Shown: positions 3,418-21,996 of the stretch, one piece after another
Position numbering within the stretch: the first letter of the stretch is position 1
Layout of the letters: every line of letters starts with the position of its first letter
Source of the DNA: Promethearchaeota archaeon
Lineage (GTDB): Archaea; Asgardarchaeota; Odinarchaeia; Odinarchaeales; JBHLKK01
NCBI GenBank assembly: GCA_048939565.1
Contig: JBHLPJ010000002.1
Location: 1-32,160 of the forward strand
Direction: 5' to 3'
DNA: 32,160 nt
Position numbers and translations under genes: made by a program
The notes under the pieces: model-generated
Databases searched by the model: none
The model's input: the letters and a program-made list of their open reading frames with translations, nothing else
Told to the model about the DNA's origin: nothing

Positions 3418-3744
3418 ATGAGTTTAATACTTGCCGTTCCTATTGCATTTGTGATTTGTCTGATAGTAGTTGGAATACTCTATCTTTTTGGTAGAAAAAT
3501 GGCCCCTCCAAGTAGAAAAAAGGGGGAAGCTGTGTTAACCTATGCTTGCGGTGAAGATATGGATCAAGAGAAAATCCAATTCAGAATTAACTGGCTATAC
3601 TATGCAATATATTTCGTTATCTTCGACATCATTGCTTTTACGCTTTCTCTATCCATTCAACTTGGGGTCTTTGAATCAGCACTAATGGCAGTAGCTTACT
3701 CCTTTATTTCCCTTGTAGCGATACTCGTACTCCTAAGACGATAG
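3418..3744 (+). CDS. NuoA(ND3)-like small membrane subunit of a group-4 hydrogenase / complex-I-like module
   Basis: Three predicted TM helices. The YACGED motif corresponds to YECG in NuoA, and YYAIYFVIFDIIAF corresponds to the NuoA A..F..FD.E motif. I prefer the ATG at 3418, preceded by AGAGG, over the track's TTG at 3379. Confidence 0.65.
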   Translation: MSLILAVPIAFVICLIVVGILYLFGRKMAPPSRKKGEAVLTYACGEDMDQEKIQFRINWLYYAIYFVIFDIIAFTLSLSIQLGVFESALMAVAYSFISLVAILVLLRR

Positions 3745-3757
3745 AGGTGAAAGAAGA

Positions 3758-4210
3758 ATGGGGTTACTTAAAAGATTGGTTGACTGGTCAAGGCGTAAAT
3801 CACCTTGGCTCCTCCACTTCAATGCTGGAAGCTGCAATTGCTGTGATATAGAAATCCTGGCTGCTCTGATGCCTCGATTCGACATAGAACGGTTTGGGGC
3901 TCTTCTTAAGGCCAGTCCGAGACATGCTGATGTACTCGTATGCACAGGACCTGTTACATTGCAGCAGGCAAAGCGTCTAAAAAGGATTTATGAGCAGACG
4001 CCAGATCCAAAGTTTGTAATGGTAGTAGGTACATGTGGAAGTACGGGTGGGGTCTTTAGAGGCTGTTATCATACTCATCAAGGAATTGATAATATTATTC
4101 CGGTTGATGTTTACGTTCCCGGCTGCCCTGCAAGACCTGAATCTATACTATTCGGGGCTGTAAGGTTACTTCAGAAATTGGAGGCAGTCCAAAAAGGTGA
4201 AAGTACATGA
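3758..4210 (+). CDS. Group-4 [NiFe]-hydrogenase small subunit / NuoB-like [4Fe-4S] subunit
   Basis: GSCNCCDIE, GTCGSTGG and VPGCPARPE cluster-ligand motifs, 150 aa. GAGGTGA Shine-Dalgarno sequence. Its stop overlaps the next start (ATGA). Confidence 0.9.
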   Translation: MGLLKRLVDWSRRKSPWLLHFNAGSCNCCDIEILAALMPRFDIERFGALLKASPRHADVLVCTGPVTLQQAKRLKRIYEQTPDPKFVMVVGTCGSTGGVFRGCYHTHQGIDNIIPVDVYVPGCPARPESILFGAVRLLQKLEAVQKGEST

Positions 4211-8040: not shown

Positions 8041-8601
8041 ATGCTACTAAACACTGAGCTGTTCAAGGTAATTGTCACTGGAGAGGGTGGTGTTGGAAAA
8101 ACCTGCCTTGTTCAGCGTTATACTAGCGGTAACTTTTATCACACAAGGACGACCATCGGAGTAGGATTTGCCACAGCTGATGTTAATCTCAATGGAAGAG
8201 ACATAAAACTCCAGATTTGGGACTTCGGTGGTGAAGAACGTTTTAGAAGACTTCTTCCCTCTTTCTGCAAAGGAGCAAGTGGAGCATTAGTTCTATTTGA
8301 CTTGACAAGATTTCCTACTTTTCTTCATCTCAACGAATGGTTGGATCTCATAAGAGATAACACCAACAATATACCGCTGGTCCTCGTGGGATCAAAGGCC
8401 GATCTTACGAACATGAGAGTTGTTGGCAGAGAAGAGATCGCCGACCTGATGAATAAATACAATATCGAACACTATTACGAAGTCTCATCGAAAGATGGAA
8501 TCAACACAGAGGTGGTTTTTACTCGAATTGCTAAACTAATAGTTAACTCATTTGAGACCAGCAACACGAATAATGAACACGGGATAATAAGCATACAATA
8601 G
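8041..8601 (+). CDS. Small GTPase, Rab/Ras-like
   Basis: G1 GEGGVGKT, switch-I region TIGVGF (Rab-type IGVDF), G3 WDFGGEERF, G4 GSKAD, G5 SSK. 186 aa with no C-terminal Cys prenylation motif. Confidence 0.9.
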   Translation: MLLNTELFKVIVTGEGGVGKTCLVQRYTSGNFYHTRTTIGVGFATADVNLNGRDIKLQIWDFGGEERFRRLLPSFCKGASGALVLFDLTRFPTFLHLNEWLDLIRDNTNNIPLVLVGSKADLTNMRVVGREEIADLMNKYNIEHYYEVSSKDGINTEVVFTRIAKLIVNSFETSNTNNEHGIISIQ

Positions 8602-8611
8602 GAGGTATAAG

Positions 8612-9598
8612 TTGTTGAGCGTTACTGATCAAAGCTTCTTGGAGACCAAGCAGCCTGTTATATGTGATATCTGCGGTGAGAAGTTTAATATTAAAATTGA
8701 AAAAGAATATCTTAACGATGTCAAGCGTTTTCCGTTCTCTTACACGTTTGTACATGGAGCACCACCACATGCAGTTGTAGTATATCTTGATAAGGATCTG
8801 AATGTTAGAGGAACTGAGACATCTGATCTGACAAGCATAAAAAGCGGTGAACTAAATACTCCCGCTGTAGATATTACGCCTGATACTCGTCCTATTCTTT
8901 CAAAAAGGGACATCGGAAAGTTGGAAATGGACGGCGATACTGTTTTTATACTTCGAGAGATTGACGGTGAGCTTACAGTTAAGGAAATCGCTGAGAAAAC
9001 CAAAATGGACATAGACAAGGTATGCCAGAAAGTCCAGTATTTAGTTGACTCTGGCGTGCTAATGCCGCTGTTACCTATTGACCTCTGTAATGTGGATTAC
9101 CATCGGATTTACGAGCTCATACCGCCATATAATACAAACAATGTAACCATGACTGCAGGTGCCCAGAGAAGTTCTGCAACCTGCACAATTCTCAGCAACC
9201 TTGACAAGGACTACACTGTTCTGGAAATCGCTCGAGGCCTTGAAAAGGCTGGCTTTGATAAATCTCCCAAAGACGTCCTTGAGACTTTGGAATACTTCGA
9301 GGCTAGGGATGTGGTTCGAGTAAAAGGCCTGACTAAGATTGATATACCTGAGGAATGGAACGATCCTATATTCAATCAAGTACCAAGATTTGCAGACGGT
9401 ATAGAAGAAGAAAGCATACTCAAGAAGGTACCAATTCCAGACAAAACACACTATTTCATTATCAAGAATATTGGAAGAAGGAGTATACTCGATACCACAT
9501 TAGGCTTAATAGGACTTGGCATAGAGACAAATCCTAGAAGGGTACTAGAAATCATAAGGAAGTATCAAAAGCAAGGCTTGGTATATGCCACATTCTAG
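8612..9598 (+). CDS. Hypothetical protein: N-terminal C-x2-C-x26-H-x4-H domain followed by three winged-helix-like repeats
   Basis: TTG start 11 nt after the GTPase stop, preceded by GGAGGT. N-terminal segment CDICGEKF...YTFVHGAPPHAVVVYLDKDLNVRG. Three helix-rich segments of about 55 aa each end in a beta-hairpin-like motif: ...LVDSGVLMPL, ...EARDVVRVKG and ...QKQGLVYATF. No family recognised. Confidence 0.7.
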   Translation: MLSVTDQSFLETKQPVICDICGEKFNIKIEKEYLNDVKRFPFSYTFVHGAPPHAVVVYLDKDLNVRGTETSDLTSIKSGELNTPAVDITPDTRPILSKRDIGKLEMDGDTVFILREIDGELTVKEIAEKTKMDIDKVCQKVQYLVDSGVLMPLLPIDLCNVDYHRIYELIPPYNTNNVTMTAGAQRSSATCTILSNLDKDYTVLEIARGLEKAGFDKSPKDVLETLEYFEARDVVRVKGLTKIDIPEEWNDPIFNQVPRFADGIEEESILKKVPIPDKTHYFIIKNIGRRSILDTTLGLIGLGIETNPRRVLEIIRKYQKQGLVYATF

Positions 9599-9717
9599 GC
9601 ATAAACCATCTCATTCCTTTTTCTACTTTCTTTGTTCAACAATATTTAATAACAAATGGCACCATAGTCTACCCTGTCAAGATTAAACATTATGCCATAA
9701 GAGAGGAGGCAGAAATA

Positions 9718-9990
9718 GTGACTAAGTCCGAGAGTATAAGATCCAGGTGCAAGTTGTGTGACATCATCATTGATATTCCTGTTCCCAAAGATTTCGATGC
9801 CAGCGAAGGTGGCGTTGCACCCATAGTCTATGTACATGGCAATCCTCCTCACACAATAATCGCATATGTGGATGTGAATCTATCGGTCAGAAGCAGTTTC
9901 GTTGTTAGAACCACCGATCCCAAAAAGGCATTAACCGAGCTGAGAAAAAAAGCACTCAAGAGAATGGTAAAACGTGTAAAATCGCTCTGA
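9718..9990 (+). CDS. Hypothetical small protein: stand-alone paralog of the C-x2-C...H-x4-H domain, with a basic C-terminal helix
   Basis: GTG start preceded by GAGGAGG. CKLCDIIIDIP...PIVYVHGNPPHTIIAYVDVNLSVRS aligns residue-for-residue with the N-terminus of the 8612-9598 product. Confidence 0.65.
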   Translation: MTKSESIRSRCKLCDIIIDIPVPKDFDASEGGVAPIVYVHGNPPHTIIAYVDVNLSVRSSFVVRTTDPKKALTELRKKALKRMVKRVKSL

Positions 9991-21603: not shown

Positions 21604-21996
21604 GTGTCATCTGTAAAAATCACTCCTGAAAAAGCAAAAGAATTGGCCAATTATCTTAGTGAGATTACCATGAAAACCGAATTAGAGGCTCTGGCCTGTG
21701 TTACGCGTGAGGGACAACGACTTGCTTTCAAAACTGTTGGCTATGAAGTTGAACCGGATCTAATGTCAGCAATTTCAGCTGCCATGCTTCATGTAGGAGA
21801 GACTGCCGTATCAAGAATGGGCTTTGGAGATCTTTGGGAGGTTATTGTCACAGGAGCGGAGGGCTATATAGTGTTATCTGGAGCGGGAAAGCTGGTCTTG
21901 ATAGGTGCTGGGAGATCTATGACTAGTCTCGGCAATACTGTGAGTGTATTTAGAAATTATGCAAAAATGGTTGCCAATCTGTTTCCTAGCAAGTAA
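21604..21996 (+). CDS. Roadblock/LC7 (MglB-like) domain protein
   Basis: 130 aa. LEALACVTREGQRLAF...DLMSAISAAML..GE....MGFGDLWEVIVTGAEGYIVLSGAGKLVLIGAGRSMTSLGNT follows the Roadblock/LC7 profile. GTG start preceded by AGGGAG. Confidence 0.75.
   Translation: MSSVKITPEKAKELANYLSEITMKTELEALACVTREGQRLAFKTVGYEVEPDLMSAISAAMLHVGETAVSRMGFGDLWEVIVTGAEGYIVLSGAGKLVLIGAGRSMTSLGNTVSVFRNYAKMVANLFPSK

Follow-up and report, generated by a model that had tools for sequence, protein, structure and literature searches.

What is encoded by a Cys/His motif that occurs twice in 1.3 kb, directly downstream of a gene for a small GTPase, and what does it do there? The motif lies in a stretch of 32,160 nucleotides from a Promethearchaeota archaeon (contig JBHLPJ010000002.1, positions 1 to 32,160; the window), at the start of two neighboring genes whose products are denoted p328 and p90. 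The initial annotation had proposed a new metal-binding domain. The two copies are instances of one unannotated domain of ~55–60 residues, which has so far been seen only in Asgard archaea and is referred to here as CCHH. The reading favored here, with a probability of about 55%, is that CCHH serves as an interaction module stapled by zinc, through which proteins are coupled to small GTPases, perhaps after pairing of p328 with p90.

The first copy of the motif (8663..8812, plus strand) translates to CDICGEKFNIKIEKEYLNDVKRFPFSYTFVHGAPPHAVVVYLDKDLNVRG and the second (9748..9894, plus strand) to CKLCDIIIDIPVPKDFDASEGGVAPIVYVHGNPPHTIIAYVDVNLSVRS. Both translations are exactly those given in the initial annotation, and each copy forms the N-terminus of an open reading frame (ORF). 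The ORF for p328 (8612..9598, plus strand) encodes the CCHH domain, a linker, and three winged-helix-like modules as predicted using AlphaFold2 (AF2). It starts with TTG, 10 nt past the stop codon of the gene for a Ras/Rab-like small GTPase of 186 aa (8041..8601, plus strand; Pfam Ras, PF00071, 2.2e-40). The GTPase gene is the first of the cluster and is preceded by an archaeal histone gene. The ORF for p90 (9718..9990, plus strand) has a GTG start with GGAGG 9 nt upstream and encodes a CCHH domain followed by a putative basic helix at the C-terminus. The putative ligands are C18, C21, H48, and H53 in p328 and C11, C14, H40, and H45 in p90. Residues Y58, D60, and R66 of p328 and Y50, D52, and R58 of p90 are also conserved. 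When p328 and p90 were compared using BLASTP, just the CCHH region was aligned, with 17 of 52 residues identical and an E-value of 4e-8 for this single comparison.

Recurrence of the motif in homologues was checked in two scans. A profile made from three copies in the window's own genome was used to scan the phylum, and CCHH domains were detected in 309 of 400 Asgard genomes; among the high-quality genomes the count is 75 of 90, and at the level of genera it is 65 of 85. Up to 13 copies are found per genome, in host ORFs of 91 to ~850 residues. A 16-sequence profile was searched against 1.84 billion representative proteins and retrieved 456 clusters at E ≤ 1e-3, of which 130 remain at the stricter cutoff of 1e-10. 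All members with a source name come from Lokiarchaeia/Promethearchaeota, Thorarchaeota, Hodarchaeota, or Odinarchaeia. The named members are all "hypothetical", except for names taken from a fused TPR or V4R part. The occurrence in Asgard archaea only is based on the short list of global matches and on the names of these matches. The view that the motif reflects a real, selected fold is borne out by the 456 clusters, their distribution across the Asgard archaea, and the strong conservation of the Cys, Cys, His, and His residues.

The conservation figures were obtained from 155 CCHH instances. The two Cys are each conserved in 98%, the first His in 100%, and the second His in 83%. The other conserved positions are Gly (93%), the first Pro (83%), Tyr (73%, with Phe in a further 14%), Asp (90%, with Asn in 8%), Arg (87%), and the Pro of an "FPF" motif (77%). 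Among the positions that had been described as invariant, the two Cys, the two His, the Gly, the first Pro, the Tyr, the Asp, and the Arg held up, whereas the Leu is conserved in only 46% and the Pro in second place of "PP" in only 25%. The spacer is long, as had been noted, but its exact count had to be corrected. Copy 1 has 26 residues between the second Cys and the first His (C-x2-C-x26-H) and copy 2 has 25 (C-x2-C-x25-H), which corresponds to x25 and x24 up to the Val, and the distance from Cys to His ranges from ~24 to 31 across the family. In 141 of 154 instances the domain lies at the N-terminus.

Five significant CCHH copies are present in the window's own genome. The best scores are those of p328 (82 bits), of a protein on contig C16 in which CCHH is fused to TPR (60 bits), and of p90 (59 bits). 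The other two are a copy at the C-terminus of a protein encoded on contig C170 (38.6 bits) and a divergent copy, N-terminal in its protein, on contig C44 (34.5 bits, E = 1.3e-8). The copy on C170 (4478–5785, minus strand) belongs to a protein of ~390 aa and is a divergent CCHH domain (CPHC...KHEDH...IYLD) in which H-x2-H replaces H-x4-H. The Cys-rich N-terminal half of this protein gave no match in Pfam.

The domain is novel with respect to the family and structure libraries that were searched. No already characterized Pfam or DUF family covers it: Pfam and NCBIfam returned nothing over the CCHH domain in the window proteins, in nine diverse members, or in 150 representatives. A PDB sequence profile search with CCHH gave only local CxxC matches at E ≥ 0.18, and a Foldseek search of the PDB with the domain model gave a best E-value of 0.59. 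No description of the domain was found in a full-text literature search that included the most relevant Asgard papers.

The Cys2His2 ligand set is common to CCHH and the classical C2H2 finger (C-x2-4-C-x12-H-x3-5-H, beta-beta-alpha), but the two are distinct, as had been argued from the spacer. Copy 1 reads C-x2-C-x26-H-x4-H and copy 2 has x25, so that the spacer is 25–26 rather than 12 residues, and the His residues are predicted on a beta-hairpin rather than on a helix. The nearest zinc finger profile to the window proteins in Pfam is zf-C2HC_2 (E = 0.23). The domain is also not a 4-Cys ribbon, since the Cys/Cys/His/His set is evident from the sequence itself. ArfGAP domains, which also belong to a GTPase context, likewise have a conserved Arg behind a zinc finger. 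Their finger is of the C4 type with a spacing of 16 residues, and the Arg comes 5 residues past the last Cys, whereas the Arg of CCHH lies 13 residues past the last His. The window proteins match neither the ArfGAP nor the zf-C2H2 family of Pfam.

A resemblance is also seen to the zinc-ribbon group, for example the 4-Cys ZnR domain of Myxococcus GltJ (PMC11135422). Both domains are small and beta-rich, with a C-(P)-x-C knuckle near the N-terminus that is placed in a hairpin and a second pair of ligands at another hairpin tip, for CCHH according to the predicted secondary structure. The GltJ ZnR acts in the small-GTPase circuit of MglA and MglB and is reported to bind MglB, not MglA (PMC11135422). 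CCHH differs in its Cys2His2 ligands, in a second "knuckle" of the form H-G-x-P-x-H, and in an insert of 25–26 residues with a short helix. The GltJ domain comes from a bacterium, and neither the zinc-ribbon families of Pfam nor the searches of PDB sequences and with Foldseek connect zinc ribbons to CCHH.

Other assignments of the domain were tried and rejected. A mini-longin was considered from the beta-beta-alpha-beta-beta-beta order, with "HGxP" as the GP motif and the Arg as an arginine finger, and was dismissed as homology. CCHH has ~60 aa and lacks C-terminal helices, whereas the longin fold has ~120 aa. The Asgard FLCN-type longins read (D/E)E-x-x-GP ... ARG, and the likeness of "HGxP" and Arg in CCHH is superficial. 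Membership in the GAP-type longins (FLCN/SMCR8/NPRL2; GAP, GTPase-activating protein), which place a GP motif in the beta1-beta2 loop and have an arginine finger, was not found either, as hhalign against Asgard longins positive for PF11704 gave a probability of 0.2%. A homologue of Roadblock was rejected at an hhalign probability of 0.8% for a 155-sequence CCHH profile against an 85-sequence Roadblock alignment, against which a positive control, the N-terminal domain of the p328 paralogues described below, reached 88.3%.

The CCHH domain was modeled using AF2 with a 16-sequence alignment (predicted local distance difference test, pLDDT, 91; predicted template modeling score, pTM, 0.72). The model begins with a hairpin around CxxC, continues with a short helix, and ends in three strands, in agreement with the beta-rich fold that had been anticipated. 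Strands 4–5 and 12–13 flank the C-D-I-C-G-E turn, the helix spans residues 19–22, and an antiparallel meander is formed by residues 30–36, 41–47, and 53–60. His36 ends the first long strand and His41 begins the second, across the 4-residue turn G-A-P-P. The AF2 secondary structure thereby places the four candidate ligands at two hairpin tips, in a zinc-ribbon-like manner. Because of the conservation of the ligands and their predicted positions at these tips, the two Cys and two His most likely bind a single zinc ion with a structural role. A structural salt bridge could be formed by the conserved Asp and Arg that flank the second hairpin, or these residues could act as a functional pair. As modeled, CCHH appears to be a Cys2His2 variant of a zinc-ribbon-like fold that is absent from current family and structure libraries.

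The link of this domain to small GTPases was found in gene neighborhoods. A sample of ~10 kb around each of 60 domain genes from other Asgard genomes was collected, with simple gene calls. A Ras-like GTPase is the immediate neighbor of 16 of the 60 domain genes. Within the same loci, 16 of 117 immediate neighbors encode Ras-like GTPases, whereas among the remaining 344 genes there are only 2 (Fisher odds ratio 27, p = 1.2e-8). When all GTPase ORFs at ≤400 nt from a domain gene were counted, a less strict criterion, 17 pairs were obtained, with the GTPase upstream on the same strand in 12, downstream in 3, and divergent in 2. The gaps for the upstream GTPases on the same strand are usually a few to a few tens of bases.

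The adjacency is seen with several CCHH architectures and, beyond the family of the window, in at least five families, f8, f14, f22, f31, and f33. The GTPases that adjoin CCHH genes in f33, f14, and f22 score 148–178 bits against the GTPase of the window, and the paralogues from the window's own genome score at most 138 bits. Since these neighbors outscore every own-genome paralogue, the pairing of GTPase and CCHH looks orthologous. In the window's own genome the divergent CCHH copy on C44 lies directly downstream of another GTPase.

The switch II motif of the window GTPase is DFGGEERF, with Glu at the position of the catalytic residue Gln61 in Ras. The DF(G/A)GE variant is also present in the CCHH-adjacent GTPases of L053, L056, L069, L073, and L074 and in no other GTPase of the window's genome; the partner GTPases of f31 keep the Gln. 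The conserved cassette of f31 (L076–L080, L085, L092) is composed, in this order, of a Ras-like GTPase, a CCHH and winged-helix protein of 171–214 aa, and a third protein of ~160 aa. The third protein has a C-x2-C ... C ... C pattern (QNCLICPRRVGGYDLEGxTACPVGG). Its possible identification as V4R found no support, with no Pfam match at E ≤ 0.1 and an hhalign probability of 3% against CCHH-V4R fusions.

Fusion partners were surveyed in 150 CCHH representatives. In P0127 and P0097 the CCHH domain is followed directly by an entire GTPase domain of the Ras family (Pfam Ras, 1.8e-24 and 6.3e-28). A small-GTPase partner module would be expected to recur next to or fused with GTPases, and both were observed, in the adjacency counts and in these two Ras fusions. 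V4R is fused to CCHH in 9 of the 150 representatives, and TPR is also among the partners. One member carries a GerE/LuxR helix-turn-helix (HTH; Pfam, 2.9e-7). A class of ~730–850 aa that combines CCHH with coiled coils is recurrent. A class of 150–190 aa with CCHH and one winged helix is very common and aligns with residues 15–150 of p328 in phmmer. A tandem CCHH-CCHH arrangement is found in 7 of the 150 representatives.

Loci of family f22 (L060, L063, L071, L093, L094) encode small stand-alone CCHH proteins of ~103–152 aa, and the next gene encodes ~840 aa. Many of these proteins have the C-terminal motif EISRD..TF......KWSNP. A GTPase-adjacent class of ~320 aa from other lineages (A5) was considered to be of the p328 type and was rejected, as it shares the CCHH domain only and not the C-terminal region.

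The architecture of p328 itself provides a further connection to GTPases. An order-wide search with p328 identified paralogues of its residues ~81–324, at 33–39% identity and E-values of 1e-38 to 1e-48. One paralogue is encoded in the window's own genome (C164:2308–3030, minus strand; locus L117, 1486–2355) and is cut by the contig end. Another, of 431 aa, is encoded in the same genus (G299:C134), and proteins of 405–432 aa occur in the sister family; loci L113–L116 also belong to this paralogue family. The N-terminal ~119 residues of the paralogues are not CCHH; their relatives are stand-alone proteins of 132–138 aa in other Asgard families. A 29-sequence alignment of this N-terminal domain was compared with an 85-sequence alignment of Roadblock/LC7, seeded from the window's own Roadblock gene (21604–21996), and hhalign gave a probability of 88.3% and E = 2.9e-6 over 100 columns. 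The domain was not recognized as Roadblock by Pfam, by the PDB profile search, or by hhalign with shallow profiles, and the match appears only with the deeper alignments. At the level of sequence profiles, there are two paralogous architectures, one with Roadblock and a predicted triple winged helix and one with CCHH and a predicted triple winged helix.

Roadblock domains are known as platforms for small GTPases, as in MglB, Ragulator, and the C-terminal domains of the Rag proteins, and they also tend to pair and to adjoin Ras-like GTPases. CCHH holds the same architectural position as Roadblock/LC7 (MglB, LAMTOR), tends to pair, and adjoins Ras-like GTPases. It differs in having half the size, no flanking helices, a putative metal site, and no detectable sequence relationship. 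The placement of CCHH in the slot of a GTPase-platform domain is the strongest architectural argument for the proposed function; the argument is one of position, not of homology.

The full-length model of p328 was calculated from a shallow alignment (pLDDT 77.6, pTM 0.63); in it, the CCHH domain is joined by a disordered linker to three winged-helix-like modules rich in helices. Module 1 (residues ~100–155; 8909..9076, plus strand) is acidic and has the motif ILxxIDGxxTVxEIA, with helices within 108–146 and a strand at 150–152 in the model. Modules 2 and 3 (residues ~156–328; 9077..9595, plus strand) are assigned from the AF2 secondary structure. The Pfam matches of p328 to winged HTH families of the MarR, TrmB, and ArsR type, at residues 110–150, are all below threshold. 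When the p328 model was searched against the PDB using Foldseek, the top 12 matches were all chains of NPRL2, NPRL3, or Npr2 from entries of the GATOR1/SEA complex, with E-values of 1.6e-5 to 6.5e-3, probabilities of 0.92–1.0, and 188–300 aligned columns. After these, the E-values jump to 0.34, and SelB and other generic proteins with tandem winged helices follow at ~0.4. The identities of the chains were checked: human NPRL2 is 100% identical to 6ces_N, and 8adl_S is Npr2.

The likeness resides in the C-terminal region of p328, as the CCHH model on its own gives no such matches. The fold of the NPRL2/NPRL3 C-terminal lobe is found in the p328 model, but with a template modeling (TM) score of 0.2 and at a model pLDDT of 77.6. 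Such a TM score would be expected when a flexible multidomain model is superposed as a whole. In sequence, residues 107–152 of p328 align with residues 190–235 of NPRL2 (ILxxIDG..v.eIa) over 46 residues, with an hhalign P-value of 0.0098 and a probability of 4%. The p328 profile gave no NPRL match among PDB sequences. The Pfam NPR2 family (PF06218) was found in none of 41 related genomes and also in none of 14 control genomes, and this search is hence uninformative.

NPRL2 and NPRL3 (Npr2 and Npr3 in yeast) are the pair of GATOR1/SEACIT that combine a longin domain with a C-lobe, and the complex is a GAP for RagA/Gtr1. The protein p328 is similar in having a small N-terminal beta domain, a linker, and a predicted C-terminal region rich in winged helices. 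Its setting, with a GTPase neighbor, a partner (p90) that has the same N-terminal domain, and a Roadblock-bearing paralogue, recalls the paired arrangement of NPRL2 and NPRL3. It differs in that the N-terminal domain is CCHH rather than longin, the GTPase is not Rag, and no DEPDC5-like partner was identified. NPRL2-like proteins of Asgard archaea have already been described and consist of a longin domain and the NPRL2 C-domain (bioRxiv 10.1101/2020.10.19.343400), an architecture that differs from that of p328.

The pair of genes for p328 and p90 is kept in the same genus. In a distant metagenome-assembled genome (MAG) labeled "Odinarchaeia", locus L108 encodes a p328 orthologue (P0009) with 50% identity, followed after 21 nt by a protein of 100 aa with a CCHH domain (60 bits) and a basic tail like that of p90. 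The pair is followed by genes for 2-oxoacid:ferredoxin oxidoreductase, as in the window. A second pair of adjacent CCHH genes is found at L044. The conserved pair, the pair at L044, and the tandem duplicates suggest that CCHH domains work in twos. Locus L108 also contains a ubiquitin-like gene (3667–3936; PF00240) with an internal ...RTEGG followed by a 14-residue extension. This gene lies beside divergently oriented genes for an E2 (UQ_con), EAP30, and ESCRT-II (ESCRT, endosomal sorting complex required for transport).

The tail of p90 (9904..9987, plus strand), VRTTDPKKALTELRKKALKRMVKRVKSL, has an isoelectric point (pI) of 11.6 and is a probable amphipathic helix. Membrane or nucleic acid could be its binding target. 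The gap of 119 nt between the p328 and p90 genes (9599–9717) contains the T-rich tract ttcctttttctactttctttgttc and the AT-rich, TATA-like stretch caatatttaataac; because of these two elements, p90 may have its own promoter and may not be cotranscribed with p328. Orthologues of p328 were identified with 92%, 86%, and 50% identity, and the closest are "hypothetical proteins" of MAGs named Hodarchaeota or Promethearchaeota. A search of genome contigs for related loci gave two near-identical loci only. Metagenomes of sediment and mangrove contain the locus: in runs from five separate studies, 64% or more of its sampled words were recovered, and it is therefore not an assembly artifact. All runs that contain the locus are DNA metagenomes.

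In the mechanism favored here, CCHH would act as a zinc-stapled platform for protein–protein interactions. Pairing of the CCHH domains of p328 and p90 would possibly come first, and the domain would then link its host proteins to small GTPases, either in a regulatory role or as an effector. This role would be in keeping with an almost always N-terminal domain that is combined with interaction modules such as winged helices, V4R, TPR, and coiled coils, and that may take the slot held in paralogous and in eukaryotic proteins by Roadblock or longin. CCHH proteins would bind GTPases directly, and any activity as a GAP or a guanine nucleotide exchange factor (GEF) is equally an inference. A more far-reaching version, which is tentative and would go well beyond the coupling itself, is that CCHH represents an unrecognized class of small-GTPase platform, born in the Asgard archaea, that replaces Roadblock and longin domains. 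In that version p328 and p90 would pair through their CCHH domains and, perhaps with the Roadblock paralogue, would form a GATOR1-like GAP or GEF complex on the neighboring GTPase, with R66 and R58 as catalytic residues.

Several observations weigh against these proposals. The second His is missing in 17% of the members, and one subgroup has Asp, Asn, or Glu nearby. The Asp and Arg may be a mere salt bridge rather than catalytic. About 73% of the sampled domain genes have no GTPase neighbor, many of the adjacent cases come from one lineage (f31), and the 60 loci are not phylogenetically independent. At L108 the gene upstream of the conserved pair is the ubiquitin-like gene, and no GTPase is present. 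The matches to NPRL2 and NPRL3 have a TM score of only 0.2 and a root-mean-square deviation of 17–20 Å for a model from a shallow alignment, and the sequence support for the NPRL2 link given by hhalign is marginal. The neighboring GTPase is Ras/Rab-like, and its best Pfam match is Ras rather than Gtr1_RagA.

The large share of domain genes that lie apart from any GTPase would be accounted for if CCHH were a generic structural or dimerization module with zinc and no specific class of partner, and if the GTPase neighbors resulted from the abundance of these genes and from inherited synteny. The very diverse fusion partners (V4R, TPR, coiled coil, HTH) are consistent with such a module, and tandem and adjacent duplicates would fit plain dimerization. 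Other neighbors are recurrent as well, namely DEAD/Hel308-like helicases (8) and metallo-beta-lactamases (5); the commonest neighbor families include DEAD, Helicase_C, and archaeal helicase domain 4, with 8, 7, and 5 members, respectively. However, the GTPases cluster right beside the domain genes (16 of 117 versus 2 of 344), and the link extends across architectures and across families f1, f8, f14, f22, f31, and f33, with two direct fusions in addition. The slot of the domain in the paralogous architecture is moreover held by Roadblock, a known GTPase platform. A generic module is thus considered doubtful. The possibility that CCHH proteins are transcription factors was weighed on the same architectures. 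Proteins with an N-terminal zinc ribbon and an HTH or winged HTH, a combination found in many archaeal regulators, would bind DNA, with V4R as the ligand sensor, and the GTPases would be regulated genes or coincidental. Many members do combine CCHH with a winged helix, one has the GerE/LuxR HTH, V4R is common in bacterial sensor-regulators, p328 has weak winged HTH matches of the MarR, TrmB, and ArsR type, and the tail of p90 is strongly basic. Against DNA binding are the acidic pI of p328 (5.2) and of its first and best-conserved winged helix (4.4) and the absence of any Pfam winged HTH match above threshold. The p328 model matches the protein-binding lobes of NPRL2/3 at 1.6e-5, and MarR, Lrp, and MntR are reached only at E > 0.6. 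The fusions to Ras domains, TPR, and coiled coils of 700 aa also fit DNA binding poorly, and the paralogous architecture bears Roadblock. Transcription factors are therefore an unlikely identity for these proteins.

The neighborhood of L108 suggests yet another identity, a zinc finger linked to ubiquitin or ESCRT, like NZF or UBZ. In this case p328 and p90 would belong to the Asgard sorting system, with ESCRT-II-like winged helices. At L108 the gene pair lies 64 nt downstream of the ubiquitin-like gene, close to the genes for UQ_con (E2), EAP30, and ESCRT-II. Winged helices in tandem make up the ESCRT-II subunits, and zinc ribbons are frequent in Asgard ESCRT proteins (PMC10936438). This arrangement was found in one lineage only, however. 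None of the 60 other sampled loci has a ubiquitin-like gene, and the orthologous ubiquitin-like gene of the window's genome is on a different contig (C60), so that the link ranks as a minor rival. The top 50 Foldseek matches of the p328 model include no ESCRT-II structure, and the Hodarchaeia, which are reported to be without ESCRT (PMC10936438), retain p328 and p90. A role of CCHH in ubiquitin or ESCRT sorting is accordingly regarded as highly improbable. The coupling of CCHH proteins to small GTPases is retained as the preferred reading.

If the GTPase link should fail, the domain would still be a new variant of a Cys2His2 zinc-ribbon-like fold. With at least 456 sequence clusters annotated only as "hypothetical", it deserves its own entry in Pfam and a structure determination. 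The genomes of Asgard archaea contain genes for dozens of GTPases of the Ras, Rab, Arf, and Rag types. To our knowledge, few regulators or effectors of these GTPases have been identified beyond Roadblock and longin proteins, and the classic eukaryotic GAP and GEF domains explain none of them. CCHH would be a concrete candidate for this missing GTPase machinery in the lineage closest to eukaryotes.

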